The translations under genes and the position numbers were made by a program. From Escherichia phage W22, in the sequence record PV159336: 64,000 nt of DNA. The stretch is one strand, 5' to 3'. Below, in pieces: positions 28,066 to 63,900 of this stretch (its first letter is position 1; each line of letters starts with the position of its first letter). The notes beneath the pieces were generated by a model. That model searched no databases. It was not told where the DNA came from and was given only the letters and a program-made list of their open reading frames with translations.

Positions 28066-29043
28066 TTAAGCAACAGCCTGGTCTTCTTTTTCAGGGAAGA
28101 TTAAACTTGCAATAACACCCAGCCCCAGAGTACCTAACACAATATACATACTGATCGTCGGATCAATGTGTGCTGGCAGGAAACTCACTTTTGCGTGCAG
28201 AGTTTCTGCAAACGGGTGATACATCAGTTTTACACCCACAAATACCAGGACTACGATAACTGCTTTCTCCAGATGAACCAAATATTTCAGTGCAACACTA
28301 AGGACAAAGAACAGAGCACGTAGACCTAAAATTGCACACAGCATTGAAGAAAATACAAGCAGAGGTTCTTGTGTCACTGCAATTACTGCTGGAACAGAGT
28401 CTACTGCAAAGATTACGTCAACCATTTCCATTACAAACACACAAACCAATGCAGGAGTTGCTACACGAACACCATTTTTGATTGTGAAGAACTTCTCACC
28501 ATCCATCTGATCAGATACAGGGAACAGCTTACGAACAATGCGAGTAGCCCAGTGTTTAGAGTAATCAACTTCTGCGTCATTATCTCCAGCGAATACCATT
28601 TTAGCTGCACAGAAAAGGATGACCGCACCGAAGAAGATATTAACATACCAGCCCAAACTCAACAAGTAAGTACCTACTGCTACAAACACACCTCGGAAGA
28701 CAATCGCACCTGCAATACCCCAAAGTAGAATCTTGTGTTGCAAGTGTGTACTTTTAATACCAAAACTTGCGAATACTGCCACAAATACTACTAAGTTATC
28801 TACAGAAAGAGATTTCTCCAACACATACCCACTCAAGAACAAGCTCGCAAAATCAGCACCGTGTTGGAAGTATACAAAACCATAGTAGGCTAATGATACC
28901 CCAATCCAGAAAATTGACCAGCCAATTGCAGATTTAAATGAAATTTCTTTGTTTTCCCTGTGTCCAAAGAAATCAATACAAATCGACAAGACTAAAATAC
29001 CCACTAAAACAACCACATCAATAATTGGGAAACCCAGTTGCAT
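28066..29043 (-). CDS. TerC-family integral membrane protein
   Basis: AGAGGAG RBS; multi-TM; signature LEKSLSVDNLVVF. Confidence 0.8.
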   Translation of the reverse strand: MQLGFPIIDVVVLVGILVLSICIDFFGHRENKEISFKSAIGWSIFWIGVSLAYYGFVYFQHGADFASLFLSGYVLEKSLSVDNLVVFVAVFASFGIKSTHLQHKILLWGIAGAIVFRGVFVAVGTYLLSLGWYVNIFFGAVILFCAAKMVFAGDNDAEVDYSKHWATRIVRKLFPVSDQMDGEKFFTIKNGVRVATPALVCVFVMEMVDVIFAVDSVPAVIAVTQEPLLVFSSMLCAILGLRALFFVLSVALKYLVHLEKAVIVVLVFVGVKLMYHPFAETLHAKVSFLPAHIDPTISMYIVLGTLGLGVIASLIFPEKEDQAVA

Positions 29044-29120
29044 TCTTTTCTCCTCTTTAATGCGGAGGACAATCCTCCGCTCTATGTCGTATACTATAAA
29101 CTGTTTTTAAAGAAAGTCAA

Positions 29121-51917: not shown

Positions 51918-52132
51918 TATTTTGAAAATTTTTATTTTTATAAAAAGGGGTGTGGGTTTCATGTACAGAAATTCACCCTCTGCACAGTATATCCAGAGTA
52001 AATATTATTCTGTACTCTGTTAATAAAGTATTTAATTTGTTTGTTGGATTATGGTATCTGATCTTTAAAAGGCATACTATCTCTTAACTACTACTTATAA
52101 CAGAACAGTAAAATCATTTTTATAAAAAGGAC

Positions 52133-52340
52133 AAAATTATTTAAAGTTTTTACAGATTTTTGGGTACAAATTTTGAAAATGAAAAGTTCAAGTTTGGTCA
52201 AAATTATTTAAAGTTTTTGTACGTATTTCTATCCAGATTTTGAAAATGAAAACTTCAATTTTTTAAAAATTCCCCAGTTTATTTAAAGTTTTTTTGCCTT
52301 TTTCCGTAGAAAAATCAAAAATGAAAAGTTCAATTTCGTG
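52133..52340. repeat. three tandem AT-rich direct repeats (about 67-77 bp units)
   Basis: Each unit has ATTTAAAGTTTTT (52139, 52206, 52281) and TGAAAATGAAAA(G/C)TTCAA (52174, 52241, 52316). Confidence 0.7.
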
Positions 52341-52359
52341 TTTTTATGGGTATGCGTAT

Positions 52360-52470
52360 GATAATCATTCTCATTTGTAAATGAGAATCATTATCATTTA
52401 ATTATGTAAATGATAAGCATTCTCACTAAGAGAATGAGAATCATTAGCAAATGAGAATTTTTCTCATTTA
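52360..52470. promoter_or_regulatory. palindromic operator-like array built on TGAGAAT/ATTCTCA
   Basis: Three inverted repeats: 52360-52395 (17-bp arms), 52418-52436, 52449-52469; at least 7 copies of the 7-mer in 110 bp. Confidence 0.6.
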
Positions 52471-52730
52471 CAGAATAACGCGCAGGGGCGGTGTTTGTCT
52501 CGCGCTCCCGTGTCCCCTCGCCATACAATAAGAATAGCATAACCAACAACAAAAGCAAGCGATTATTTTTATCTTTACATTTCTTTACAAATTTATTTTG
52601 GACGAGCTACCGGCGATCAACCTTCCAACCAGTGCCCCCTGGTATGTTAGCCCCGCCTTTACGCCGTGGGGGTGGCGTTTCCTCTTCTGTATGTAAAACA
52701 GTATAAGCCCGATCCCTGGGCTTGTCAAGA

Positions 52731-52997
52731 TTATTTTTTGTTTTCTTGCCAGGATAGGACACCTAACCAAAAATACATGTCGCCCCGCGCCCCTGGCGGG
52801 ATCTTGCTTTCCCCGCCGCCACTGCAAGCCCATAAATAACCATCAGCGAACGGATCAAAGTGATCTATCTCTTCCACCTTATGATCGCCCAGGTTGAGAA
52901 CGGTTTCAACCTTTAAGCCCGTTGCGCTTGCTACCTGGTGCACCGTGCCGCCTTGCCAGCCCAATGAGTGCATGAGATGTAAAGGAGTATTTGTCAT
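52731..52997 (-). CDS. hypothetical protein encoded in GC-rich island
   Basis: 88 aa ORF with AAGGG RBS; local GC content far above surrounding phage DNA. Confidence 0.3.
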   Translation of the reverse strand: MTNTPLHLMHSLGWQGGTVHQVASATGLKVETVLNLGDHKVEEIDHFDPFADGYLWACSGGGESKIPPGARGDMYFWLGVLSWQENKK

Positions 52998-53108
52998 GGT
53001 ATCGCCCTTTCTTTGATGTGCGCCCTGGTTGGCGCGGTAGAAAGATAATAGCCGTTTCCTTTATAGATAGCAAGCAAAAAAGAAATGAAAAAAAGATTAA
53101 AAAAATGG

Positions 53109-53170
53109 TTGACGTTCCTCACCTGGTAGCGTAGTATTCATCTTGTCGAGGGGCGGCAATAGTGCCGCTC
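53109..53170 (+). promoter_or_regulatory. sigma70-like promoter plus 5'-UTR hairpin cassette
   Basis: TTGACG 53109-14, 17 nt, TAGTAT 53132-37; hairpin GCGGCA-ATAG-TGCCGC 53153-68. Confidence 0.6.
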
Positions 53171-53192
53171 ATAACAGAAGAGAGAAATAATC

Positions 53193-53465
53193 ATGGCATC
53201 ATATAGCGCATCAATGATCGTAAAGGGTATCACTGGTAAACCTATGCGCGGTGGCGGATCTTTCGCTAACATCAATATTGATGGACGTTTATCCCTGGAC
53301 GCAGCGATCACAGTGGCACGGGAAACGTTTAAAAAAGAATGTAATTTCAATAAACAAGATTATCTCGGTTTCGCTATTGAAAAAACCGCGCGATTTGTGG
53401 ATTATAAAAGCCCGAAAATGATCGACACTACACTAAAAGCGCAAGATGTAGCGTTTTTGCTTTAA
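53193..53465 (+). CDS. hypothetical early protein
   Basis: 90 aa ORF downstream of promoter-hairpin cassette. Confidence 0.5.
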   Translation: MASYSASMIVKGITGKPMRGGGSFANINIDGRLSLDAAITVARETFKKECNFNKQDYLGFAIEKTARFVDYKSPKMIDTTLKAQDVAFLL

Positions 53466-53468
53466 GTC

Positions 53469-53528
53469 TTGACACTGAAAAATAATTTGGTAATATATAC
53501 TCCATAAGGCGGGAAATGGTTTCCCGCC
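53469..53528 (+). promoter_or_regulatory. sigma70-like promoter plus 5'-UTR hairpin cassette
   Basis: TTGACA 53469-74, TAATAT about 53491-96; hairpin GGCGGGAAA-TGG-TTTCCCGCC 53508-28. Confidence 0.65.
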
Positions 53529-53550
53529 AAAACAAAGAAAGGGTAACACA

Positions 53551-53913
53551 ATGAGCAAGCAAATCAATACTATCATGTTAAACCTGGTATCTTTCCGCGA
53601 TGACGTGAAAAACCTTTCGCGTGATGCAGTGGATGCACGGATCGAAAGCTATCGCACACAGATCGCAACGTTACCGCTGAAACGTGATCAACATGCCGCT
53701 AATATGATGCTTGATGCTATGATTAAAAAGATGATTCAATGTGATCTTACCCTGGCTTATGAATATGCTGGCGATCTCTTTGTAACATATAGCAAGCCCG
53801 TTCCAGGTATGAGCACCACGGAAGAATTGCATGCCTTAAATCTGCGACAAGATGCATGGGATAACATGCGCCGTGTTATGGTATGGGTAGAAAGCGGTAA
53901 AATTTACGAATAA
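53551..53913 (+). CDS. hypothetical early protein
   Basis: 120 aa ORF after cassette. Confidence 0.5.
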   Translation: MSKQINTIMLNLVSFRDDVKNLSRDAVDARIESYRTQIATLPLKRDQHAANMMLDAMIKKMIQCDLTLAYEYAGDLFVTYSKPVPGMSTTEELHALNLRQDAWDNMRRVMVWVESGKIYE

Positions 53914-53919
53914 AAACGG

Positions 53920-53973
53920 TTGACATTGCACTAAAACCTGATAAGCTATCTTAAAGCGGGAATAGTTCCCGCT
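53920..53973 (+). promoter_or_regulatory. promoter-like -35 plus 5'-UTR hairpin cassette
   Basis: TTGACA 53920-25 with weak -10; hairpin AGCGGGAA-TAG-TTCCCGCT 53955-73. Confidence 0.5.
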
Positions 53974-53991
53974 TACATAGGATAAAACTTT

Positions 53992-54138
53992 ATGAAACAA
54001 TATGTAATGAGTATTCATACCAAAAACGGCGCTACTGTTACGACTCCGGCACGGTTTGCACTTGTAAACCGTTGCAAGAGACTAAAACGAGAGCTAAAAA
54101 ATAACCGTGCAACGGGCTTTAAACGCTGGGGAGGATAA
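53992..54138 (+). CDS. small basic protein (48 aa), absent from ORF track
   Basis: ATG 53992 after hairpin; K/R-rich; stop TAA 54136-38. Confidence 0.4.
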   Translation: MKQYVMSIHTKNGATVTTPARFALVNRCKRLKRELKNNRATGFKRWGG

Positions 54139-54140
54139 TC

Positions 54141-54401
54141 TTGTTTTTTCTAAAAGTTTTTGATAATGTGATCGCTTTTGAACATGCTACAACGTTCGAC
54201 CTGGCGAGATACGCTATCAGGTTTAAAGATAATGTTTATCCCCGTGCTGGCGGCGGTTACACTATTTTTAATCATCGCAACGCGCAACTGACTGATGTAA
54301 CTAATCCAGATCCTGGAGTGTATCGGATAGGCTGGCTACCGTCAAAAGACGCTGCAAGCATGTTTAAGGTATGTAAACTACTAACAGAAGAGGCGAACTA
54401 G
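54141..54401 (+). CDS. hypothetical early protein
   Basis: TTG start with GGGAGG RBS (GTG alternative at 54168); 86 aa. Confidence 0.4.
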   Translation: MFFLKVFDNVIAFEHATTFDLARYAIRFKDNVYPRAGGGYTIFNHRNAQLTDVTNPDPGVYRIGWLPSKDAASMFKVCKLLTEEAN

Positions 54402-54402
54402 C

Positions 54403-54957
54403 ATGGGGCGTGAATATGTGATCCAGTCCTGGGTAAAGCATGACGCAAATGATCCGCGCATAATACCAGATGACATGATCGATCACATGGTAGGGTATAG
54501 CGGGGAGCAGATAGGAAATCGAGCGGCAAAGAGCAACGGCAACACCAGGACGAGATCCGTTCGCCCTGGATGGCTGGCGAATGGTAACGCTGACATTGCA
54601 AGCGCCGCAGATCCAAGCGATGACGCTAAAAATAATCCCTTATACAGCATTGATCCGGCTTTTAAGGTGTTGGAAGAGTATCCCGCTAAATTAGCCGCAC
54701 TAGACAAGGCATACGAAGAAAAGCGCATGGCCTGGACTGTATACAACACCGCTAAAATGGTGCTAGATGCAAAACTAATTAAAGCCCAGGAGAAGATCAA
54801 TAAACTTGTTACCATAGCACAAGAGGAAGACCAGGGCGACCAGGAGGAAGAGGAAGAAATCATGCCTACCTTGGAAGAGGAAGAGATCCAGCCATACATG
54901 CCGACGGAAGAGGAAAAAAGACAAGCCTTAAAAAATTATGAAAATTGCATTGTGTAA
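54403..54957 (+). CDS. hypothetical early protein with acidic C-terminal tail
   Basis: 184 aa; start overlaps upstream stop (TAGCATG); C-terminus EEDQGDQEEEEE. Confidence 0.5.
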   Translation: MGREYVIQSWVKHDANDPRIIPDDMIDHMVGYSGEQIGNRAAKSNGNTRTRSVRPGWLANGNADIASAADPSDDAKNNPLYSIDPAFKVLEEYPAKLAALDKAYEEKRMAWTVYNTAKMVLDAKLIKAQEKINKLVTIAQEEDQGDQEEEEEIMPTLEEEEIQPYMPTEEEKRQALKNYENCIV

Positions 54958-54960
54958 GGC

Positions 54961-55016
54961 TTGACATATGCAAACAAGCACCGTAATATATACCACATAG
55001 AACGGGGCAACGCCCC
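54961..55016 (+). promoter_or_regulatory. sigma70-like promoter plus 5'-UTR hairpin cassette
   Basis: TTGACA 54961-66, 17 nt, TAATAT 54984-89; hairpin GGGGC-AAC-GCCCC 55004-16. Confidence 0.6.
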
Positions 55017-55038
55017 ATAAAGTGAAATAAAAAATCAC

Positions 55039-55066
55039 TTGACACCTGAAATCAGTAAGCTATAAT
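55039..55066 (+). promoter_or_regulatory. sigma70-like promoter (tandem, no hairpin)
   Basis: TTGACA 55039-44, 16 nt, TATAAT 55061-66. Confidence 0.65.
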
Positions 55067-55103
55067 GCTTATATAAATTAAAGCGTTACTAAGGAATAAA
55101 ATC

Positions 55104-55469
55104 ATGGCTAAAAATATCAATGTTTCTGCTTATGCTACCCTGGCTAACACTGCTAAAATTGAACTGTCCAGCATTGAAGCGGTACATATTAGCGCCCGTC
55201 GCTGGTTTCAAAAGTCTTATGGTAATACTTATTTCTCTTTGATGGTTGACGTTGAGATCGGCGGTAAACTGATTGAAGTCGTTAACGTTCCGTTTCAATA
55301 TGGCTATGGGGATCATTTTGATACCGTTGCCCTAGAAGAGTTTAGCAAGGTTATCAACCTGGAAGGTAAAGAGTTTTCAAATTATGCTTACCTTTCCCGT
55401 TTTTGCCGTGACAATGGGATCGCTGTATACAGTCATGCAAGCGATGTAAAACGTAAAAAAGATTTATAA
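55104..55469 (+). CDS. hypothetical early protein
   Basis: 121 aa ORF with AAGGAA RBS. Confidence 0.5.
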   Translation: MAKNINVSAYATLANTAKIELSSIEAVHISARRWFQKSYGNTYFSLMVDVEIGGKLIEVVNVPFQYGYGDHFDTVALEEFSKVINLEGKEFSNYAYLSRFCRDNGIAVYSHASDVKRKKDL

Positions 55470-55475
55470 AAAGCA

Positions 55476-55533
55476 TTGACAGCACGAATAAAAAGCATAT
55501 AATACTTATATCGAGAGCGGGAATAGTTCCCGC
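55476..55533 (+). promoter_or_regulatory. sigma70-like promoter plus 5'-UTR hairpin cassette
   Basis: TTGACA 55476-81, 16 nt, TATAAT 55498-55503; hairpin GCGGGAA-TAG-TTCCCGC 55517-33. Confidence 0.7.
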
Positions 55534-55557
55534 CTCACTGAAAAAGAGATTAACATC

Positions 55558-55797
55558 ATGGCTAAATCTAAAATGTACAACGGTCACAAAAATAAAACTC
55601 ATTGGAATGTAAGCCTTTGGATTAATAACGATCCAGGTTTTTATAATATGGCAAAAGAATTTATAGCCGTGAACAACAATAAAGATAACGCCGCGCGTGA
55701 AATGATGTCACTACTTAACGAAATGGGCCAAAATACTACGCCAGATGGCTATAAATTCAGTAAAACCAGTATCCGCGCCGCTATGGTAGGAATGTAA
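55558..55797 (+). CDS. hypothetical early protein
   Basis: 79 aa ORF. Confidence 0.5.
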   Translation: MAKSKMYNGHKNKTHWNVSLWINNDPGFYNMAKEFIAVNNNKDNAAREMMSLLNEMGQNTTPDGYKFSKTSIRAAMVGM

Positions 55798-55806
55798 TAA
55801 AAGCAG

Positions 55807-55866
55807 TTGACAACGTTTTTTAATCTGGTATAGTTTATCACATAGGGCGGGAAATGGTTTCCCGCC
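55807..55866 (+). promoter_or_regulatory. sigma70-like promoter plus 5'-UTR hairpin cassette
   Basis: TTGACA 55807-12, 16 nt, TATAGT 55829-34; hairpin GGCGGGAAA-TGG-TTTCCCGCC 55846-66. Confidence 0.65.
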
Positions 55867-55888
55867 AAATGAAAGAAAGGTTATCATT

Positions 55889-56116
55889 ATGGCTATCGTT
55901 ATTGTTCGCGTATCCGGCACGGTTGGAATCTCCCAGGTAGTAGCAGTTATCACCGAGAAGAAAGGGGATGATCTTCACTCCTCCTTGAATAGCTGGGCGG
56001 TCGCTAACTTTGGGCAATGGTCGAGCGTTGAGTACATCGAATCCTACCAGGTGCCAACGATTAGCCTGACCGATCTCAATGTTGATCGTCTGTTATGCCT
56101 GGATGAATTAATCTGA
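55889..56116 (+). CDS. hypothetical early protein
   Basis: 75 aa ORF. Confidence 0.5.
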   Translation: MAIVIVRVSGTVGISQVVAVITEKKGDDLHSSLNSWAVANFGQWSSVEYIESYQVPTISLTDLNVDRLLCLDELI

Positions 56117-56125
56117 AAAAGATTG

Positions 56126-56181
56126 TTGACACGGGAAAGAAAAAGAGTAAACTGTATTACGTAGGGCGGCAATAGTGCCGC
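56126..56181 (+). promoter_or_regulatory. sigma70-like promoter plus 5'-UTR hairpin cassette
   Basis: TTGACA 56126-31, 16 nt, TAAACT 56148-53; hairpin GCGGCA-ATAG-TGCCGC 56166-81. Confidence 0.55.
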
Positions 56182-56206
56182 TCATAACAGAAGAGAGATT
56201 ATCACG

Positions 56207-56422
56207 ATGGTTAATATCCGCACACTGTTAAAAAATGCAAGTCAAGTTTTATTTTCAGATGACGAGTATTTCAACAAAGACATTACAGGCGTGAAAAATT
56301 TAAAAGACGTGAAGGATGTTATCGGTATCCGTGGATCTTTACGTAAAGGTGACATATACGGTAACAAGGTGCAATATAAACTGTCAAAAGATTATGATTT
56401 TACTTTGACAATTATTTCATAA
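56207..56422 (+). CDS. hypothetical early protein
   Basis: 71 aa ORF. Confidence 0.5.
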   Translation: MVNIRTLLKNASQVLFSDDEYFNKDITGVKNLKDVKDVIGIRGSLRKGDIYGNKVQYKLSKDYDFTLTIIS

Positions 56423-56428
56423 AACTAC

Positions 56429-56489
56429 TTGCAAACCTGGTAAAATAAAGTAAACTATATTCATTAAGGCGGTGGAATAGCCCACCGCC
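56429..56489 (+). promoter_or_regulatory. sigma70-like promoter plus 5'-UTR hairpin cassette
   Basis: TTGCAA 56429-34, 16 nt, TAAACT 56451-56; hairpin GGCGGTGG-AATAGC-CCACCGCC 56468-89. Confidence 0.5.
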
Positions 56490-56512
56490 TAACAAAGAGA
56501 AGAGGAAACATC

Positions 56513-56683
56513 ATGATCACTTTCGCTACCCGTGAAGCCGCTCGCAACGTTGCACGTAAAGTTAATGCCGCCAACCTGGGCGCTACGCTTAAAGCCCCGG
56601 TTAAAGATGAATCAGGAAAATGGATCTTCCCTGGTCTGCGTCACGCTGATAAGCTGGGAACATTAACGTTAAAAAATAAATAA
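56513..56683 (+). CDS. small protein (56 aa), absent from ORF track
   Basis: ATG 56513 after hairpin; GAGGAAA RBS. Confidence 0.4.
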   Translation: MITFATREAARNVARKVNAANLGATLKAPVKDESGKWIFPGLRHADKLGTLTLKNK

Positions 56684-56690
56684 TATTCGC

Positions 56691-56749
56691 TTGACAGTAG
56701 CATCATTTATAAGTAAAGTAACAACAACGGCGGGAAATGGTTTCCCGCC
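56691..56749 (+). promoter_or_regulatory. sigma70-like promoter plus 5'-UTR hairpin cassette
   Basis: TTGACA 56691-96, 17 nt, TAAAGT 56714-19; hairpin GGCGGGAAA-TGG-TTTCCCGCC 56729-49. Confidence 0.6.
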
Positions 56750-56769
56750 ATCAATAAAGAGATAAGATT

Positions 56770-57129
56770 ATGAAATCAGTAAAAGCAATTAAAACTTACA
56801 TTGTGTCGGCTATTTCTTTTGATGGTACTACAACCGAAAAAGAAAAGATCACCGAACTGATGCGCCGTTTTAACTCTGAATACTGGTATCAATCTAATCG
56901 TGATCGTTATAATAACAATATGGTACAAGGTGTCAAAAGCTGGTTACAAGGTTTACCGTCAGATATCAATATCGCTTTTAATTATAACGAGATCGATCAA
57001 TTATTAATTGAATGGAAGTACATAAAAGAAACAAGCAAAGAAACAACCGTTACCCGTGAGCGGGAAAATTATTGGTTATATATTGCAAGCATGATCGTAA
57101 CTTTGGCAAAATATCATAACGTAGCGTAA
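56770..57129 (+). CDS. hypothetical early protein
   Basis: 119 aa ORF. Confidence 0.5.
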   Translation: MKSVKAIKTYIVSAISFDGTTTEKEKITELMRRFNSEYWYQSNRDRYNNNMVQGVKSWLQGLPSDINIAFNYNEIDQLLIEWKYIKETSKETTVTRERENYWLYIASMIVTLAKYHNVA

Positions 57130-57143
57130 TCGAGAGGAAAAAC

Positions 57144-57281
57144 ATGAACGCATCACAGCAGATCGAAAAATTCAACCGCAATAAAGCGCGTAAAGATTGG
57201 AACGAAGAGATCACCAAGAAAGGCGACAAGCGGAACAAAACAAAAAGAGATCGCAGCAGCAAAAGATACTGGAACGAATAA
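57144..57281 (+). CDS. small highly basic protein (45 aa), absent from ORF track
   Basis: ATG 57144 with GAGAGGAAA RBS; K/R-rich; followed by terminator. Confidence 0.4.
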   Translation: MNASQQIEKFNRNKARKDWNEEITKKGDKRNKTKRDRSSKRYWNE

Positions 57282-57283
57282 CA

Positions 57284-57308
57284 AAAAGGGCGCAATAAGC
57301 GCCCTTTT
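57284..57308 (+). terminator. rho-independent terminator
   Basis: AAAAGGGCGC-AATAA-GCGCCCTTTT. Confidence 0.7.
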
Positions 57309-57398
57309 AGCTTATATAGAGGCTTGTTGCTTATAGGCAAGGGTAACGCCAGGATAAGCCTATAAACCACGTTAGACGGCTTTACAGGAGCTTTAAAA

Positions 57399-57581
57399 AT
57401 GAAATTAGAGGAAATAAGCAAGGCACTAGCCCAGGGGCAAAGGTTATGCGCCCGATATCGTGATCAATATGGTTTCATAACTAGCGGCGTGATCCTGGGG
57501 ATTGAAGACAATAAGATTTTTATTGACACGTTGAAAAACGTTGTATATAGTGACAATATAATCTCAATAAAACATATATGA
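57399..57581 (+). CDS. hypothetical early protein
   Basis: 60 aa ORF with CAGGAG RBS. Confidence 0.4.
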   Translation: MKLEEISKALAQGQRLCARYRDQYGFITSGVILGIEDNKIFIDTLKNVVYSDNIISIKHI

Positions 57582-57589
57582 GGCAAGAA

Positions 57590-57991
57590 ATGAAAAAATT
57601 ATTGATAGCTGGTTTAATCTCTTTTGGCATGGTTGGAACATCTAGCGCGGCGATATCCTCCACAGTAGCAGAATTAAGCGCCGTTGATGCAATGGAAAAC
57701 GTCATGATCATTAATAATGCGATCCCCGATGAAATCATGGAGGATTCACACATGATCGCTTATGGTGCTGTTACACAATTAACGGCAAAAATAGATAAAT
57801 CTATTGTTAATGGCTTAAATGAAGATGTACCATGTGAAATTATTACCAGTGTGCTAACGACTCAAAATTTTACGCCGTGGTTAAAAAGTATTCAAAAAGT
57901 ACACAGTACAGCCGCAGATCGTAGCAATGAAAAACTAGTGTCAGCACTTGCAACGTATACCCTAGCAAAATGCACCGAAATAAAAGATTGA
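57590..57991 (+). CDS. secreted early protein
   Basis: Start taken at MKKLLIAGL (GAGG RBS); signal peptide ending SSAAIS. Confidence 0.5.
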   Translation: MKKLLIAGLISFGMVGTSSAAISSTVAELSAVDAMENVMIINNAIPDEIMEDSHMIAYGAVTQLTAKIDKSIVNGLNEDVPCEIITSVLTTQNFTPWLKSIQKVHSTAADRSNEKLVSALATYTLAKCTEIKD

Positions 57992-58016
57992 CAACATAGA
58001 AAGCACGTTATAAGAT
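57988..58016 (+). promoter_or_regulatory. sigma70-like promoter (no hairpin)
   Basis: TTGACA 57988-93, 17 nt, TAAGAT 58011-16. Confidence 0.5.
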
Positions 58017-58038
58017 ACACACAACAAAGGAGAACTAC

Positions 58039-58341
58039 ATGAACGGCATAGCTAAAACGTTTTTTCTTTTTTCTGGTGTAAATGACCCATCAATAAAAGT
58101 CGATAGCGTAAAAGAAAACAATACTATCACCGCTAAATTATTTCAAGATGAAACAAATAACGTGCTAATCATTAATCTTAAAGAAATAACAAAAGGTTAT
58201 TATACTATTGCTTACCATGCGATCTATAATGCTGATACTAGTGAGGAAGTGCAAACAAGCAACAACGAAAGCGCGGCGCTACCTGGTGATCTGGTGCTGG
58301 GCGTTATCAGTTTAATTGTCAATGATTTTTTTAAGGAGTAA
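58039..58341 (+). CDS. hypothetical early protein
   Basis: 100 aa ORF with AAGGAG RBS. Confidence 0.5.
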   Translation: MNGIAKTFFLFSGVNDPSIKVDSVKENNTITAKLFQDETNNVLIINLKEITKGYYTIAYHAIYNADTSEEVQTSNNESAALPGDLVLGVISLIVNDFFKE

Positions 58342-58345
58342 AACC

Positions 58346-58441
58346 ATGCCCTATTTACATTTATTTTTCGGGATCTTATTGACAGGATCTTTTTTCTTCT
58401 GTATGCTTGTTTCTATTGTAAACCACGTTTTAAAACATTAA
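58346..58441 (+). CDS. hydrophobic micro-protein (31 aa), absent from ORF track
   Basis: ATG 58346 with TAAGGAG RBS; single predicted TM helix. Confidence 0.35.
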   Translation: MPYLHLFFGILLTGSFFFCMLVSIVNHVLKH

Positions 58442-58599
58442 GGAAACAGCATGAAAATTATTCCCGTACAGTATAGCGTAATAAATCCAGCATATGAGGA
58501 AGGAAGGAAAACAAGCATGGCTTTATGTTGTATTGCTACTATAGCCATGTTATTATACACTGTGTTTTAATAGGTTTTATAGTTGTACGCTTTAAAGGC

Positions 58600-58627
58600 T
58601 TGACAATTTTTTGTTATGCTTTAAAAT
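58600..58627 (+). promoter_or_regulatory. sigma70-like promoter (no hairpin)
   Basis: TTGACA 58600-05, 16 nt, TAAAAT 58622-27. Confidence 0.45.
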
Positions 58628-58670
58628 ATATCTTGAAAACGGCAAAGGCCGCAAACAAAAGGGTAAAATT

Positions 58671-58994
58671 ATGAAATCTGTGATCGGTGTTTATTTGGAT
58701 AACTCTGATTTTTTCTATCATCGTGCGCGTTTACTTGATGCGATTGAAATGATAGAATCAGGCTTTAAAGAGTATCGCCTTGCACATGATGACCTGGAAG
58801 CATTACAGGGCAATAGTGTTTTTACATTGCAAGCTAAAGCACTATGTAAAAGCCGGATCGACATTGCAAGCAAAAAGATAGAACGCGGCATGTCCTGGTT
58901 GCGCACCGCAGAAATCAACATGGGGCAATGGTACGGCGAAAACTTAGAAAATAAACTCACTTTTGTAAATGTAGAAAATATTAAAGATTATTGA
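58671..58994 (+). CDS. hypothetical early protein
   Basis: Start taken at MKSVIGV, downstream of promoter; 107 aa. Confidence 0.45.
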   Translation: MKSVIGVYLDNSDFFYHRARLLDAIEMIESGFKEYRLAHDDLEALQGNSVFTLQAKALCKSRIDIASKKIERGMSWLRTAEINMGQWYGENLENKLTFVNVENIKDY

Positions 58995-59056
58995 TTGACA
59001 GCACACCTGATAAGTAATATATTGTATCTCATAGAGCGGGGAAATGGTTTCCCCGC
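58995..59056 (+). promoter_or_regulatory. sigma70-like promoter plus 5'-UTR hairpin cassette
   Basis: TTGACA 58995-59000, -10 TATATT about 59018-23; hairpin GCGGGGAAA-TGG-TTTCCCCGC 59036-56. Confidence 0.6.
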
Positions 59057-59076
59057 CTTAACAGAAGAGATAAGAT

Positions 59077-59361
59077 ATGAAGATCACAAAAGCACTTTCC
59101 AACTATGCAGCACGTCGCGGCTTATGCTTAACCGTTGAAAACTTAGGGAAAGAAGATTTTTTGTGCTTTTGGGAGCTTGAGAATGATAATGAGTGGATCT
59201 TCTCTTATTCTATCTGCAAAGATCAAAATGGTTGCTTGTTAACCTGGCGCGGTAATATCTATTTGCCGGAAGAAATAAAACAAGAATTACCAGGCACGAT
59301 CATGACTGAGAAACAGCTTAAGGAAGTGATCAATTTTGTAGGGCAAAACATTAAAAAATAA
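59077..59361 (+). CDS. hypothetical early protein
   Basis: 94 aa ORF. Confidence 0.5.
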   Translation: MKITKALSNYAARRGLCLTVENLGKEDFLCFWELENDNEWIFSYSICKDQNGCLLTWRGNIYLPEEIKQELPGTIMTEKQLKEVINFVGQNIKK

Positions 59362-59362
59362 T

Positions 59363-59423
59363 TTGACAGTAGGCAAACAACGTAGTAAAGTTTATCACAT
59401 AGGGCGGGAAATGGTTTCCCGCT
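59363..59423 (+). promoter_or_regulatory. sigma70-like promoter plus 5'-UTR hairpin cassette
   Basis: TTGACA 59363-68, 17 nt, TAAAGT 59386-91; hairpin GGCGGGAAA-TGG-TTTCCCGCT 59403-23. Confidence 0.6.
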
Positions 59424-59445
59424 CACAGCAGAAGAGAAACAAATC

Positions 59446-59616
59446 ATGATCCCAACTATGTTTTACGTATCGCGCAAAGGTCACAATATTTTTTGGTCTG
59501 AAGATTTAAATGAAGCCATGACGTTTGCCCGTGATCGTGTTGCTATCGGTGGCGTTAATATTACCGTAACCGATGAAAACGGCATTGAATACTATAACGG
59601 CGACGATGAAGAGTAA
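59446..59616 (+). CDS. small protein (56 aa), absent from ORF track
   Basis: ATG 59446 after hairpin; acidic C-terminus. Confidence 0.4.
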   Translation: MIPTMFYVSRKGHNIFWSEDLNEAMTFARDRVAIGGVNITVTDENGIEYYNGDDEE

Positions 59617-59623
59617 TTAATAA

Positions 59624-59644
59624 GGCGGGGGAGTATTCCCCGCC
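59624..59644 (+). promoter_or_regulatory. stand-alone 5' hairpin (no recognisable promoter)
   Basis: GGCGGGG-GAGTATT-CCCCGCC between two ORFs; may terminate upstream or mark a processed 5' end. Confidence 0.45.
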
Positions 59645-59663
59645 ATCAATAAAGAGATAAATC

Positions 59664-59933
59664 ATGAAAATATCATTGGACGTTGCAATCAAGGCCATCG
59701 AATCCGGTTACACCCTGGTAAAAGATGATAAGGCTAAAATAGTGCATCATGTTAGCAAGGAAACAGGCGAAAGCATGATCACATATAAAGCCGCCTACTT
59801 TCTCCAATCAGTAGCAGATCCGCGCGTACAGCGCCAGGTCACGGCGGCTATTGCTAAAAAATTATGTGCTTTACAGGGCACAAGTTTTAACGAGATCCCG
59901 CCGTGTTTTGACTGGTCGAGCTTGAAAAAATAG
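59664..59933 (+). CDS. hypothetical early protein
   Basis: 89 aa ORF. Confidence 0.5.
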   Translation: MKISLDVAIKAIESGYTLVKDDKAKIVHHVSKETGESMITYKAAYFLQSVADPRVQRQVTAAIAKKLCALQGTSFNEIPPCFDWSSLKK

Positions 59934-59934
59934 T

Positions 59935-59990
59935 TTGACAATAATTATAAATAGGGTAGAATGTATTGCGTAGGGCGGCAATAGTGCCGC
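59935..59990 (+). promoter_or_regulatory. sigma70-like promoter plus 5'-UTR hairpin cassette
   Basis: TTGACA 59935-40, 16 nt, TAGAAT 59957-62; hairpin GCGGCA-ATAG-TGCCGC 59975-90. Confidence 0.65.
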
Positions 59991-60013
59991 TCACAACTAA
60001 AAGAGAAATCATC

Positions 60014-60208
60014 ATGGCGCTTAAAAAACTAACAAGCAATACTCGTTGGGATGAAATTGACGGGGAAGTATACATTTTCGCCCGTAAACCAGGTGATCAA
60101 AAATGGTCAAAGGCTTTTACTTGTCACCCTGCAACAATAGATCTAATAAAAAGTAAAGGTTTTCGTGAAGCAGTAGCGAGAAGTTTACTGATCCCTTGTA
60201 AAAAATAG
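60014..60208 (+). CDS. hypothetical early protein
   Basis: Start taken at MALKKL (track ORF runs through the hairpin); 64 aa. Confidence 0.45.
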   Translation: MALKKLTSNTRWDEIDGEVYIFARKPGDQKWSKAFTCHPATIDLIKSKGFREAVARSLLIPCKK

Positions 60209-60209
60209 T

Positions 60210-60269
60210 TTGACAATATGCGGTTATCTGGTAAAGTGTACCACGTAGGGCGGGAAATGGTTTCCCGCC
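60210..60269 (+). promoter_or_regulatory. sigma70-like promoter plus 5'-UTR hairpin cassette
   Basis: TTGACA 60210-15, 16 nt, TAAAGT 60232-37; hairpin GGCGGGAAA-TGG-TTTCCCGCC 60249-69. Confidence 0.6.
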
Positions 60270-60287
60270 AGAATAGAGAGAACTAAA

Positions 60288-60392
60288 ATGATTATTCTTA
60301 CCATGATGTGCGCGGCGGTTATTATTCCTTTGATAACGCTTATTGTTTCTGAGATCGATGATCTTCTCTTTGAAAGAAGTTTAAAAAAGTAA
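60288..60392 (+). CDS. hydrophobic micro-protein (34 aa), absent from ORF track
   Basis: ATG 60288 after hairpin; single TM helix. Confidence 0.35.
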   Translation: MIILTMMCAAVIIPLITLIVSEIDDLLFERSLKK

Positions 60393-60455
60393 TTGACAAC
60401 GGCTAATAAGCTGATAATATGTATCACATAGGGCGGGGCAATAAGGCAACGCCCA
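60393..60455 (+). promoter_or_regulatory. sigma70-like promoter plus degenerate hairpin
   Basis: TTGACA 60393-98, 16 nt, TAATAT 60415-20; imperfect hairpin GGGCG...CGCCC 60431-55. Confidence 0.5.
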
Positions 60456-60472
60456 CTAATGAGGGTAGCATC

Positions 60473-60577
60473 ATGTTAGAGAAAATTTTCACGGTTGTAA
60501 TAGTGGGCCTGGCGTTATCGGTTGGAGTGATTGCAACTATGGCTAACATGATCCTATCTTCCCACGGTATTGGATAA
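60473..60577 (+). CDS. hydrophobic micro-protein (34 aa), absent from ORF track
   Basis: ATG 60473; single TM helix. Confidence 0.35.
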   Translation: MLEKIFTVVIVGLALSVGVIATMANMILSSHGIG

Positions 60578-60587
60578 GGTGAAACAA

Positions 60588-60803
60588 ATGATCACGAATA
60601 AGACAGGTAAAACGGAATTTTTACGCGGCTTGCAAATAGGTAAACCTGAGATCTGGTATTGCACTAAAACACCACGTGACGAAATGAAAGACTTTACCGC
60701 CACGCTGAAGCGGGTAAAGATATCTATTACGCAGAAAAAAGCCTTGATAGTAGTAGAAAACGAGATCCCGCAAACCATTATTATTGTTGAGCGTACAGCA
60801 TGA
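60588..60803 (+). CDS. hypothetical early protein
   Basis: Start taken at MITNKTGK with AAGGTGAAA RBS; 71 aa. Confidence 0.45.
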   Translation: MITNKTGKTEFLRGLQIGKPEIWYCTKTPRDEMKDFTATLKRVKISITQKKALIVVENEIPQTIIIVERTA

Positions 60804-61186
60804 AAACAGAAATCATTAACGAAATGATCAACGGCTATAAAGAAGCCTTTATTTTTGCTGAACCAGCGACGGATCACAATGGGGAATATATTGAGAATCT
60901 AGACGATTATGATTTTTCTTCTAGCGCCCTGAAACGTATTACCAGCGATGTGACCGCCTTTTGTAATGCCAATGTTGCCGCTATCTCTGAGGCAATGAGC
61001 GACGGCGCTACAGCAAACCAGATCGGGAATGATTTACATTTTACCCGTAACGGTCACGGCGTAGGCTTTTGGGATCGCCCTGAAATATACACCACTAACA
61101 CGGCGAACCGCCTAACAAATGCCGCTAAATTAATGCCATCGGTGCATGCTTACATTGGTGAAGATAATTTGATTTATATTGAATAA
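60800..61186 (+). CDS. hypothetical early protein
   Basis: 128 aa; ATGA overlap with upstream stop. Confidence 0.5.
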   Translation: MKTEIINEMINGYKEAFIFAEPATDHNGEYIENLDDYDFSSSALKRITSDVTAFCNANVAAISEAMSDGATANQIGNDLHFTRNGHGVGFWDRPEIYTTNTANRLTNAAKLMPSVHAYIGEDNLIYIE

Positions 61187-61192
61187 AAAGTA

Positions 61193-61251
61193 TTGACACC
61201 GATCCCCAGTATGGTATTATTTACCACGTAGGCGGGAAATGGTTTCCCGCC
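61193..61251 (+). promoter_or_regulatory. sigma70-like promoter plus 5'-UTR hairpin cassette
   Basis: TTGACA 61193-98, 16 nt, TATTAT 61215-20; hairpin GGCGGGAAA-TGG-TTTCCCGCC 61231-51. Confidence 0.65.
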
Positions 61252-61274
61252 AGGTAATCAAAAAGGTAAATACT

Positions 61275-61664
61275 ATGCGCAACCTGGTTTCTGTTTCTAA
61301 CGTTGAAAAATTCCAATCCTTGCAGGGTATCGTTAACAACGTAGCGCCTTTTTTAGTCAATGGCTTGATTGCAAAGATGAAAAATAAACATCATGCCGCA
61401 TGGTCTGCTTACTGCTTTGACAATGATGAAAAAGCGGCTGAAATGATGTTAAATATGCTGTTAGACAGTGTAGAATCATCTTTACCGGAAAACATCGCAG
61501 AAGAGATCACCTATCGTTATAATATGGCGATCACTTACCAGGAGGTTGCGCAATTTAATATGATGGACGATGACGAACAACAGGATCAGGAAATTTTCTG
61601 GGAGTATGCTGATCGTCAATCGGCTTTTGATGAAAAGTTAGCGATGTATTATAATGAATATTAA
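61275..61664 (+). CDS. hypothetical early protein
   Basis: Start taken at MRNLVSV after the hairpin; 129 aa. Confidence 0.5.
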   Translation: MRNLVSVSNVEKFQSLQGIVNNVAPFLVNGLIAKMKNKHHAAWSAYCFDNDEKAAEMMLNMLLDSVESSLPENIAEEITYRYNMAITYQEVAQFNMMDDDEQQDQEIFWEYADRQSAFDEKLAMYYNEY

Positions 61665-61676
61665 TACACGGTAAAA

Positions 61677-61705
61677 GAAAGGGGCGCACTAAGCGCCCTT
61701 TTTTG
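61677..61705 (+). terminator. rho-independent terminator
   Basis: GGGGCGC-ACTAA-GCGCCC then TTTTTTG. Confidence 0.7.
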
Positions 61706-61978
61706 TATTCTTTTTTCACGATGGAAACAACACGTAAAGAATAGGCGTAAAGGTGGCGTAAAACAGCCTAAAACCGATTATAACCGCTTAAACAAGGTAG
61801 GGATGATTAATCACCTTACCAGGATGAAAAAGCCGTTATAAAGCTATCTAGAGCGTTTAAAGCACATAGGGAATAATTTGCTTTTTATCTTGCCTTTTAT
61901 TCTGCTTTTGATTATTATTATGGAACGGGCGGCACCTGGGGACAGGGGAAGATAATCACCGGACGACCCCGCTATATA

Positions 61979-61999
61979 TTGATAGCTAACATCTATCAA
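61979..61999. promoter_or_regulatory. inverted repeat, candidate operator
   Basis: TTGATAG-CTAACAT-CTATCAA, 50 bp upstream of promoter at 62049. Confidence 0.35.
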
Positions 62000-62048
62000 A
62001 CAACAAAACATCAAAGAAATAAACTATCAAATCTTTACAATCTCATCT

Positions 62049-62077
62049 ATTGACCGATAAATCATAGCAGTTTAATA
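62049..62077 (+). promoter_or_regulatory. sigma70-like promoter (no hairpin)
   Basis: TTGACC 62049-54, 17 nt, TAATAT 62072-77. Confidence 0.55.
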
Positions 62078-62126
62078 TTGTTTTTAGAGGGTAGAACATA
62101 CCCAAAACGAAAACAGGAAAAAGAAA

Positions 62127-62363
62127 ATGAAAGAAGTCATGATCCTCAAAAAATCACCTATTTTACGTGGTGGCTTTATCGCTTACTCTGATGATCTGTT
62201 AATTGCAACGGTTGCAAAAATACTAAAATCAGAAGAGGATAGTAAAAACGGCGTTTATCGTATCTGTTTCACCCGTGGGAAATTGCAAGGCAAGATCGCC
62301 TATGCTTTTGATTTACAAGATGTAAATGATAAAATCTGCGCTGTTATTGATTATGCAAAATAA
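62127..62363 (+). CDS. hypothetical early protein
   Basis: 78 aa ORF with AGGAAAAAGAAA RBS. Confidence 0.5.
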   Translation: MKEVMILKKSPILRGGFIAYSDDLLIATVAKILKSEEDSKNGVYRICFTRGKLQGKIAYAFDLQDVNDKICAVIDYAK

Positions 62364-62375
62364 TGAACTTTCTTA

Positions 62376-62404
62376 TTGACACCGGATCACGCTTACATTA
62401 TTAT
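62376..62404 (+). promoter_or_regulatory. sigma70-like promoter with lost hairpin
   Basis: TTGACA 62376-81, 17 nt, TATTAT 62399-62404; conserved CACGTAGGGC start motif present but stem absent. Confidence 0.5.
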
Positions 62405-62450
62405 TTATCACGTAGGGCAAATCATTTTAAACGGTAAACGAGGAAACACC

Positions 62451-62834
62451 ATGAGCAATATCATCAACCTGGCAGCGACTGTAAACGGTAAAGACTTTAA
62501 CGGCGCTGTAGACCGTGATCCTATGTGGTGCTTATCAGTGTTTAAAGGCGACCTGGTTGAAGTTAGAACAACCGAAGGGTATAGCGATGATTATAAATGC
62601 GAGATCCATTTACATAACTGGTACACGGGTAAAACTTATGCGCTGAATCACGCGTTTATCGGGAAAATTGAATATCGCGAAATGATCGACGAAGAAACGG
62701 GGCAAGATTTTAGCGATTATGTTTATATTCGTTCCGAAACATTAGCCGAACGGTTGATCGAGAAAATGAAAGCAAAAAATAAAATTAATTTATCTCATTG
62801 GATTGATATAACAAACGATCCAGCTTATCAGTAA
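62451..62834 (+). CDS. hypothetical early protein
   Basis: Start taken at MSNIINL; 127 aa. Confidence 0.5.
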   Translation: MSNIINLAATVNGKDFNGAVDRDPMWCLSVFKGDLVEVRTTEGYSDDYKCEIHLHNWYTGKTYALNHAFIGKIEYREMIDEETGQDFSDYVYIRSETLAERLIEKMKAKNKINLSHWIDITNDPAYQ

Positions 62835-62848
62835 ATAACATTCCATAC

Positions 62849-62876
62849 AAGGGCGCAATAAGCGCCCTTTCTTTTT
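62849..62876 (+). terminator. rho-independent terminator
   Basis: GGGCGC-AATAA-GCGCCC then TTTCTTTTT; same hairpin as 57288-57304. Confidence 0.7.
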
Positions 62877-63169
62877 ACCTCAATAAAGATGATAGCTTTT
62901 ACCTATCAAAAACGTTCACCGAAAAAAGTGAATAGATCGCGGTATCGAGCTAATCAAGGAGCAGATGAATAACCATACCATGAAGATCATAAGGCGCTTA
63001 CAACGTGTTTTAGACCGCTTATTTTTAATTTCTCCATGTAACTATCTGGCAAAAACAGCCTTTTTCTTATCTTTCCTCTTAAATAATAATCATTCTCATT
63101 TATAGCTGATTATTTATGCAATAAACTGAATAATGCAATAATGATAATCATTCTTAACTTAAGACCATC

Positions 63170-63480
63170 TAACCTATAAAATAATAAGTTATCTAACTAA
63201 ATTAAAACTAATTATCTTACTTTTATTTATAACTTACTGTTACTATCTCATTGATAACCTTATATTAAACAACAATAACTAATATAAATCATTACTAAGC
63301 TAAATATAATCTATCTAACCTTTAAAACTATAACTATAATCTATTTAATTATTGCACAAAGTAACTATTAAATCGTTAGTAACATTACTAAATAATTAAT
63401 ATCCTATCTATTTATGATCTAATCTTTACCTTACTATCTATTACCTAAATAATCATTTCATACCGTAATCATTTCATACA
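63170..63480. repeat. G-depleted, extremely AT-rich low-complexity tract
   Basis: About 10 G in 300 nt on + strand; built from CTAA/TTAT/ATCT-type words; no ORF. Confidence 0.7.
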
Positions 63481-63523
63481 ATAATTATAACAAGAAATAT
63501 AATTCGCAAGCGTATCATTAGCA

Positions 63524-63692: not shown

Positions 63693-63900
63693 TAATGTTT
63701 AGAACATTGGCTATAATATAAGCTATCCAATAATAAACATAGTGAATAATGACCCTGATGATCATAATGCGCCACCTTCCAGGGGGCGCTATGTGAACAC
63801 AAAGAAATCTTTCTTGTCAAGAAAAATATTACCATTATTGCGCAAAATTATTTACATCTGAATAGATGGTTTTTCATACTATTGGCCCAATGTAACTTGT

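Follow-up and report, generated by a model that had tools for sequence, protein, structure and literature searches.

A repeated promoter–hairpin cassette

We analysed a 64,000-nucleotide stretch of DNA from Escherichia phage W22 (sequence record PV159336; hereafter the window). Between 53.0 and 61.3 kb, nearly all small genes carry a GC-rich hairpin directly downstream of their promoter. The hairpin is part of a repeated cassette of ~90 nt, in which an A/T-rich stretch, a near-consensus sigma-70 promoter, a spacer of 11–12 nt, the hairpin, a purine-rich leader and the ATG follow one another in this order. In a phage database search, the 53.0–61.3 kb stretch aligned over its full length with Escherichia phage EC.P2 (96.6% identity), and the window belongs to a Justusliebigvirus (phi92-like) coliphage. 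The 287 phage records matching this stretch are nearly all coliphages of the Stephanstirmvirinae (Justusliebigvirus and Phapecoctavirus; the phi92/phAPEC8 group), and rV5-like Vequintavirinae gave short matches only. All annotated relatives show the region as a + strand array of 20–40 small 'hypothetical' genes, and ten of ten region proteins tested were assigned to PHROGs families with unknown function.

The members of the array are given below with the promoter as −35 hexamer, spacing in nucleotides and −10 hexamer, and the hairpin as left arm, loop and right arm. Predicted folding energies (dG) and their z-scores (z) are added for two members. Loci of relatives are labelled L001 (EC.P2), L047 (ESCO8), L048 (muut), L002–L004, L008, L010 and L049; ORF stands for open reading frame.

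53109..53192, + strand, cassette: TTGACG-17-TAGTAT (53109–53137); G.GCGGCA/ATAG/TGCCGC.T, core 53153–53168; leader; ATG 53193; dG −14.3, z −3.25; synteny breakpoint 53153–53159
53469..53550, + strand, cassette: TTGACA-16-TAATAT; GGCGGGAAA/TGG/TTTCCCGCC, 53508–53528; ATG 53551; breakpoint 53503
53920..53991, + strand, cassette: TTGACA-16-TAAGCT; AAGCGGGAA/TAG/TTCCCGCTT, 53954–53974; ATG 53992; loop CTA in L001, L004 and L047
54961..55016, + strand, orphan cassette without ORF: TTGACA-17-TAATAT; GGGGC/AAC/GCCCC, 55004–55016; second consensus promoter directly after, 55039–55066
55476..55557, + strand, cassette: TTGACA-16-TATAAT; GCGGGAA/TAG/TTCCCGC, 55517–55533; ATG 55558; breakpoints 55497–55512
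55807..55888, + strand, cassette: TTGACA-16-TATAGT; GGCGGGAAA/TGG/TTTCCCGCC, 55846–55866; ATG 55889
56126..56206, + strand, cassette: TTGACA-16-TAAACT; GCGGCA/ATAG/TGCCGC, 56166–56181; ATG 56207; loop CTAT in L004
56428..56512, + strand, cassette: TTGCAA-16-TAAACT; AGGCGGTGG/AATAGC/CCACCGCCT, 56467–56490; ATG 56513; dG −18.7, z −5.2; loop GCTATT in L008, uncompensated variants in L004 and L047
56691..56769, + strand, cassette: TTGACA-17-TAAAGT; GGCGGGAAA/TGG/TTTCCCGCC, 56729–56749; ATG 56770
58600..58670, + strand, weak member: TTGACA-16-TAAAAT; short hairpin CGGC/AAAG/GCCG, 58640–58651; ATG 58671
58995..59076, + strand, cassette: TTGACA-17-TATATT; GCGGGGAAA/TGG/TTTCCCCGC, 59036–59056; ATG 59077
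59363..59445, + strand, cassette: TTGACA-17-TAAAGT; GG.GCGGGAAA/TGG/TTTCCCGC.TC, 59402–59424, one G.U pair; ATG 59446
59624..59663, + strand, promoter-less hairpin: GGCGGGG/GAGTATT/CCCCGCC, 59624–59644, directly 3' of the upstream ORF's stop codon; usual leader; ATG 59664
59935..60014, + strand, cassette: TTGACA-16-TAGAAT; GCGGCA/ATAG/TGCCGC, 59975–59990; ATG 60015; breakpoint 59983
60210..60287, + strand, cassette: TTGACA-16-TAAAGT; GGCGGGAAA/TGG/TTTCCCGCC, 60249–60269; ATG 60288 (34-aa ORF); breakpoint 60254
60393..60472, + strand, cassette: TTGACA-16-TAATAT; long-loop GGGCG-GGGCAATAAGGCAA-CGCCC, 60431–60454 (5-bp stem, 14-nt loop); ATG 60473; breakpoint 60411 in four relatives
61193..61274, + strand, cassette: TTGACA-16-TATTAT; GGCGGGAAA/TGG/TTTCCCGCC, 61231–61251; probable ATG 61275

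The hairpin census, an exhaustive search for perfect inverted repeats, returned every hairpin listed in a preliminary description of this DNA: GCGGCA/ATAG/TGCCGC at 53153, 56166 and 59975, GCGGGAA/TAG/TTCCCGC at 53954 and 55517, GGGGC/AAC/GCCCC at 55004, (A)GGCGGTGG/AATAGC/CCACCGCC(T) at 56467, GCGGGGAAA/TGG/TTTCCCCGC at 59036 and GGCGGGG/GAGTATT/CCCCGCC at 59624. The commonest version, GGCGGGAAA/TGG/TTTCCCGCC, has five perfect copies (53508, 55846, 56729, 60249 and 61231). Its earlier count of at least six copies is slightly generous, because the sixth (59404) has a G.T as its outermost pair. Two members are missing from that description, the hairpin GGGCG-14 nt-CGCCC at 60431–60454 and the weak hairpin at 58640–58651. 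Perfect hairpins with a stem of at least 6 bp and at least 4 GC numbered 15 in 8.2 kb, compared with 1.5±1.3 expected from 200 dinucleotide shuffles; for stems of at least 8 bp the numbers were 10 observed and 0.1 expected. Relative to the remainder of the window, GC-rich hairpins were 4.4 times as dense in the region. When the 15 predicted leaders were folded from the predicted start to the ATG, each formed one hairpin near its 5' end (−14 to −19 kcal/mol; z-scores −3.2 to −5.4) and left the ribosome-binding region unpaired.

The promoter conforms to TTGACA-16/17-TAnnnT in 15 of the 17 cassettes, and the A+T content of the 20 nt 5' of the −35 hexamer is 65–90%. We determined the geometry of the cassette from 114 distinct cassettes of 14 phages. 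The distance from the −10 hexamer to the GCGG of the stem is exactly 12 nt in 71 of them and 11–12 nt in 89, and the stem lies 19–25 nt from the ATG in 106. The spacer has the consensus TAYCACRTAG, with C at −5 in 71/95 and A or G at −4 in 80/95; its C-R step has the Y-R pattern of a start site and is located 8 nt past the −10 hexamer. In the leader, A accounts for 49% of nucleotides, and the ribosome-binding stretch usually reads AGAGA/AAGAG (62/114) or AAGG (23/114), GGAG not being the usual form. The genes without hairpins at 57.1–58.5 kb, by contrast, appear from the sequence to use ordinary GGAG-type sites.

A U-tract is absent, the 9 nt after the stem mostly containing 1–2 T. In a terminator scan, no promoter-linked cassette hairpin scored as a + strand intrinsic terminator; hairpins at 57284, 61676 and 62849, which differ in form (AAAGGGCGC-loop-GCGCCCTTTT), did score. 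Since they lack a U-tract and are positioned 3' of the −10 hexamer, the cassette hairpins are not intrinsic terminators. The promoter-less copy at 59624 has the same leader and ATG spacing as full cassettes, which ties the hairpin to the mRNA and ribosome-binding site and not to the promoter.

The cassette was found in every Justusliebigvirus and Phapecoctavirus locus examined and also in phage A5-4. A few copies are present in rV5, and Serratia phage Kashira and Cronobacter phage CR3 carry the cassette with the same GCGG/CCGC stem base and a T-R-G-type loop (TGG or ATGG). The cassette is conserved in two phage subfamilies. An exact scan of IMG/VR with a 21-mer of the commonest hairpin version gave matches confined to the same clade; an IMG/VR search with a neighbouring protein returned 3 close relatives, the remaining 36 loci being unrelated phages. 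A scan of 52–64 kb with the Rfam 15 covariance models (both strands, E≤1) gave no relevant family, protein-binding hairpins included.

Pairing of the stems is maintained

In all, we collected 187 promoter-linked hairpins, with 58 distinct stem-loops. For 95 distinct promoter-linked hairpins (14 phages) we made a structural alignment in which the stem base served as anchor and N padding kept the MAFFT output free of gaps. It replaced a MAFFT alignment of the raw hairpins, which had gaps in one arm only and was unusable for pair counts. A covariance model (R1) recovered all copies but also gave good scores to the reverse strand of the palindromes, and was for this reason left out of alignment building.

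In the structural alignment, standard pairs occupied 92.4% of cells. Both arms differ jointly among the hairpin versions and pairing is retained, as the preliminary description had claimed. Double changes were found at three upper-stem pairs (G-C 49, C-G 35 and U-A 1; A-U 73 and G-C 18; A-U 45 and G-C 10), and none of the 500 shuffles and no slid register reached the same covariation score or as many doubly changed cells.

Orthologues that share the same hairpin version offer a comparison that is less circular than the covariation count. Variable columns amounted to 1/182 in stems, 2/42 in loops, 19/368 in spacer and leader and 43/308 in the promoter part. The difference between stem and spacer plus leader was significant (Fisher P=0.006), and single-arm substitutions were ~10 times rarer in stems than in the flanks. 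Of 137 orthologue comparisons, 56 were identical, 53 differed in both arms (an approximate count, as the automatic parser sometimes chose another helix), 14 differed in the loop only, 9 in one arm, 4 were loop-flipped and 1 was absent or weak. Uncompensated stem mutations, which the preliminary description had named as the observation that would speak against selection on structure, are thus infrequent among the relatives. The pairing of the hairpins is maintained.

The earlier proposal that structure rather than sequence is selected is only partly supported. Pairing is kept, but the sequences of stem base and loop are conserved as well: 152 of 187 hairpins have an identical GCGG/CCGC base, and the T-R-G-type loop occurs in a single orientation (~117 instances versus 4 flipped). 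The distance from GCGG to CCGC varies (8, 9, 11, 12, 13 or 14 nt), which fits a stem and not a dimeric DNA-binding site.

Origin of the changes in both arms

The joint change of both arms had been taken as the signature of compensatory selection. The orthologue table does not bear this out, since most changes affecting both arms are version swaps, inversions or homogenisation of paralogues. Ahead of the gene that starts at 59446, all phages have nearly the same promoter, spacer and leader, and the segment between GGCGG and CCGCT occurs in four forms: GAAATGGTTTC in the window, L001 and L010; CGGAATGGTCCA in L002, L003 and L049; an inverted copy of the latter in L004; and CAATAGTG in L008, L047 and L048. 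In the carriers of CAATAGTG, the first 10 nt of the leader are changed too, and match those found with this version at other sites of the genome. This is a short patch taken over from a paralogous cassette.

At four sites the loop or the entire hairpin is reverse-complemented and the stem is unchanged (TAG/CTA, AATAGC/GCTATT, ATAG/CTAT and ATGG/CCAT). These inversions are located at 53954–53974, 56166–56181 and 56467–56490 of the window (orthologues in L001, L004, L008 and L047) and at 9117–9140 of L004. Small hairpin-loop inversions are well known from chloroplast DNA, and the flips seen here carry the signature of template switching at a palindrome. Since they recur between phage genomes that are 94–98% identical, the strong orientation bias suggests that flipped loops get removed, either through selection on one strand, in which case RNA would be indicated, or because the majority form converts them.

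Versions are also distributed by lineage. The GCGGCA version has an ATAG loop in Justusliebigvirus (16 versus 1) and an ATGG loop in Phapecoctavirus (30 versus 3); GCGGGAAA-TGG is common in Justusliebigvirus and GCGGGAA-GTGGT more frequent in Phapecoctavirus. Paralogues have been homogenised within lineages. The suggestion that loop classes mark regulatory subsets of early genes finds no support, since the same gene has TGG, ATGG, CCAT or ATAG loops in different phages.

Swaps, flips and homogenisation are one-step DNA events that alter both arms, and the covariation therefore overstates selection on independent compensatory mutations. More generally, changes that look compensatory can arise in repeated palindromes in one step, by copy conversion or template switching, so that, without a count of independent events, changes in both arms give weak evidence that RNA structure is selected.

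Recombination at the cassettes

When the window was aligned colinearly with six close relatives, 21 merged breakpoints resulted. Seven of these were within 30 nt of a hairpin centre, where 2.2 were expected (P=0.003), and 12 were within 45 nt. A 156-bp segment at 60255–60410, encoding a 34-aa hydrophobic peptide, is present in the window and in EC.P2 and precisely absent from L047 and L048. This indel is bounded by a 13-nt direct repeat, CAYRTAGGGCGGG, of two neighbouring cassettes; at the L047/L048 junction, the promoter of one cassette is joined across the shared CAYRTAGGGCGGG to the hairpin of the next. The orphan cassette and the promoter that follows it (54961–55066) look like the scar of a cassette deletion, because EC.P2 and ESCO8 hold an extra 180-nt ORF at this site.

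In the explanation that we favour, the cassette is itself recombinogenic, its conserved spacer and left arm serving as short homologies for gene gain, loss and exchange. One cassette acquires its hairpin version from another through short-patch conversion, and template switching at the palindrome inverts the loops. Joint arm changes then stem mainly from one-step DNA events combined with selection against unpaired stems, and not from paired point mutations.

A possible role in the transcript

Four features argue that the hairpin acts in the transcript: its constant position relative to the −10 hexamer and the ATG, a leader that is open and rich in purines, the missing U-tract, and the leader geometry retained in the promoter-less copy. 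We hypothesize that it is a 5'-proximal stem-loop that stabilises or insulates early mRNAs and that is borne on a recombinogenic expression cassette, a reading which we consider probable, with limited confidence. Transcription would begin at the conserved C-R step 8 nt past the −10 hexamer, and the RNA would start with 5'-RUA(G) and reach the stem after 3–4 nt. If folded in vivo as predicted, a stem-loop at this distance from the 5' terminus would obstruct RppH as well as 5'-end-dependent RNase E, against both of which secondary structure at the 5' end gives protection (reviewed in PMC3997798). The hairpin would give each small gene the same structured 5' end and an open ribosome-binding site, whatever ORF follows, and the same cassette would provide the homology for modular shuffling.

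Several points weigh against a stabilising stem-loop. The rows of the covariation count were picked because they pair, and they are related paralogues and orthologues, so that the count contains few independent events. Counts of 16 G.U-type and 11 A.C-type appositions in the distinct cores show no clear strand preference, and folds of the + strand are only slightly more stable than those of the − strand (P=0.09). The common version GGCGGCGGA/ATGG/TCCACCGC has a conserved C.A mismatch. Three to four unpaired 5' nucleotides, the number predicted here, are said to be the upper limit for protection, reportedly according to Emory and co-workers in 1992. A purely steric block of the 5' end would not need a conserved stem base and loop, which hint at a specific partner. 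Finally, literature searches on phi92, rV5, phAPEC8 and PVP-SE1 phages returned no transcriptome and no measured start site, RNA half-life or RNA structure.

The main rival explanation is a specific RNA-binding partner, with attenuation, a role at the DNA level alone and a DNA operator all ranking below it. As an RNA operator, the GCGG/CCGC base and the U-R-G loop would be read by a phage or host RNA-binding protein that switches early genes post-transcriptionally (translation, decay or antitermination). This would account for sequence conservation beyond the needs of pairing, as in the 152 identical stem bases, for loops that hold one orientation despite recurrent flips, for the recurrence of loop and base in phages of Serratia and Cronobacter, for lineage-specific loops over all paralogues (ATAG in Justusliebigvirus, ATGG in Phapecoctavirus) and for the fixed distance to the ATG. 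We nevertheless regard it as unlikely: no candidate protein was identified, the Rfam scan gave no match even to protein-binding hairpins, orthologous sites tolerate flipped loops, loops of 3–14 nt and several stem lengths, and gene conversion alone can account for both homogenisation and orientation bias. We are similarly sceptical of its extension to a regulon-wide RNA switch, in which a dedicated factor acting on ~20 early leaders would stabilise, silence or antiterminate them co-ordinately and the ATAG and ATGG loops would reflect co-evolution. Were it true, the large rV5/phi92 phage group would have a timing mechanism of a new, post-transcriptional kind.

The loop and hairpin inversions, the version swaps between identical flanks, the breakpoints inside hairpins and the G.U and A.C counts could also be explained if the palindromes acted at the DNA level only, as recombination or template-switch hot spots (single-stranded DNA hairpins or cruciforms) that shuffle cassettes of orphan genes (ORFans), their presence in transcripts being incidental. 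Recombination in the promoter-early stem-loop (PeSL) cassettes of T4-like phages, to which we return below, has likewise been mapped to the stem-loop (PMC2839356). We think this quite unlikely, as it leaves unexplained the fixed position relative to the −10 hexamer and the ATG, the leader spacing of the promoter-less copy and the strong bias in loop orientation, and as homologous recombination needs conserved flanks alone and no palindrome. Stems of 6–9 bp are, moreover, short for cruciform extrusion. A terminator or attenuator as proposed for PeSL, limiting read-through from the upstream gene and possibly the hairpin's own transcript, could be suspected from the position of the hairpins between tandem genes, the copy at 59624 directly following a stop codon, and from the PeSL stem-loops of RB49, which cut lacZ expression like a strong terminator (PMC2839356). 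It is very improbable here. The hairpins are 3' of the −10 hexamer, so that efficient termination would abort the cassette's own transcript after ~25 nt, their tail is A-rich without a U-tract, and the true terminators of the region (57284, 61676 and 62849) differ. The idea that a dimeric repressor shuts off early promoters by binding a double-stranded DNA operator deserves hardly any credence: inverted repeats with conserved outer half-sites GCGG/CCGC do lie at about +4 to +25 of many promoters, but half-site spacings of 8–14 nt rotate the half-sites in a manner incompatible with one dimeric binder, and the copy at 59624 lacks any promoter. Readings as intrinsic terminator and as DNA operator were accordingly rejected on anatomy (position, absence of a U-tract and variable half-site spacing).

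Further features of the window

Beyond the array, two more sites are related to the cassette.

29041..29120, − strand, cassette outside the region first described: TTGACT-17-TATAGT; spacer ATACGACATAGA; GCGGAGGA/TTG/TCCTCCGC, 29062–29080; GAGGAG; ATG; 20.3 bits
62376–62420, decayed cassette without hairpin: consensus promoter and conserved spacer TTATCACGTAGGGC; right arm absent; synteny breakpoint 62402 common to four relatives

The terminator-like hairpins at 57284–57308, 61676–61704 and 62849–62869 form a second, distinct repeated family with the shared motif AAAGGGCGC-5 nt-GCGCCCTTT(T), and their sequence looks capable of bidirectional action. Another strong hairpin, GAGGGGGA/CTA/TCCCCCTC, is located at 21778–21796; it is a weak match to the hairpin model and has no clear adjoining promoter.

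The loop of the commonest hairpin holds an ATG (AAATGG; window 61239–61241), and in the GenBank annotation of EC.P2 a coding sequence begins at this loop ATG (L001, 9897–10322). A start 36 nt further on (window 61275), after the usual leader, is more likely.

Among the database records, 17 GenBank entries named 'Campylobacter phage' (host C. jejuni) are 86–96% identical to the coliphage region, as are records labelled Acinetobacter or Serratia phage; the host labels of these records look doubtful. GATC is about twice as dense at 52000–64000 (98 sites in 12 kb) as elsewhere in the window (~17 per 4 kb).

Comparison with known systems

Literature searches gave no description of the element in phi92, rV5, phAPEC8 or PVP-SE1 phages; the phi92 genome paper (J Virol 2012) may mention it, and the rV5 paper lists promoters and terminators only. 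If the proposed role is correct, the cassette would be the standard plug-and-play expression unit of the small early genes and would explain their strong and even expression as well as their gain, loss and exchange. Start codons and transcription units could then be annotated by rule. Work on therapy and biocontrol makes wide use of the phi92/rV5 phages, in which small early genes of unknown function make up about one fifth of each genome; the element is useful for annotation and for understanding the turnover of ORFans.

Integron attC sites are 60–140 nt long, are found 3' of promoter-less ORFs and need an integrase that acts on folded single-stranded DNA. They resemble the present element, by analogy only, as imperfect palindromes on small gene cassettes with structure conserved above sequence and with cassette gain and loss. 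We know of no recombinase or attI equivalent for the phage cassettes, and in contrast to attC their junctions are explained by direct repeats of 13–15 nt. The lambda-type nut site combines boxA with boxB, a 5-bp stem with a GNRA-like pentaloop that is bound by N; by inspection, the UGG, AUAG and AUGG loops found here are not GNRA-like.

Closer in anatomy are the stabilising stem-loops at the 5' ends of the E. coli ompA and papA mRNAs, reportedly described by Emory, Bouvet and Belasco in 1992, and of the phage T7 gene 10 leader. Common to these and to our cassettes are a stable hairpin a few nucleotides from the (here predicted) 5' end, an open ribosome-binding site after it and a proposed block of RppH and of the 5' sensor of RNase E. 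In the ompA type, the hairpin is at most about 2–4 unpaired nt from the 5' end, and the start predicted here gives 3–4. Stem-loops of this type are further defined by an mRNA half-life that falls when the stem is opened and recovers with restored pairing. ompA, papA and T7 are, however, single tested leaders, whereas the cassette occurs in ~17 copies per genome with interchangeable versions, a conserved base and loop and a predicted 5' end.

In promoter-coupled terminators (Fletcher et al. 2026 preprint, 10.64898/2026.08.19.745784), hairpin and promoter share short intergenic DNA between tandem genes, as they do here. In that system, termination takes place ~10 bp 5' of the start site, with a T-tract that is also an element of the promoter, whereas the hairpins of our cassettes are 3' of the predicted start site and lack a T-tract.

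The nearest counterparts are the PeSL cassettes of the T4-like phages RB49/phi1, PST and nt-1 (Arbiol et al. 2010, PMC2839356; Comeau et al. 2014, PMC4122927). These are repeats of ~100 bp with an A/T-rich stretch, a sigma-70 early promoter, a GC-rich stem-loop, a Shine-Dalgarno sequence and an ATG, and small ORFans of a hyperplastic region follow them. Where close relatives differ by indels or replacements, the junctions fall within the cassettes, sometimes within the stem-loop (PMC2839356, PMC4122927). Excised minicircles are a further feature of PeSL cassettes. The cassettes of the window share the promoter with its A/T-rich stretch, the stable stem-loop adjacent to the promoter, the Shine-Dalgarno sequence with ATG and the ORFan setting with junctions in cassettes. 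They differ in belonging to phages of the Stephanstirmvirinae and Vequintavirinae and in having GCGG...CCGC stems with T-R-G loops in place of the polyG-loop-polyC of PeSL. Furthermore, the PeSL stem-loop of RB49/phi1 is placed between the −35 and −10 hexamers or over the −10 hexamer and was read as a terminator of upstream transcription (PMC2839356), whereas the stem-loop described here is positioned 11–12 nt 3' of the −10 hexamer, inside its own transcript and without a U-tract. We conclude that the element is a PeSL-like cassette by its architecture, genomic setting and recombination behaviour, in which the stem-loop occupies a different position.

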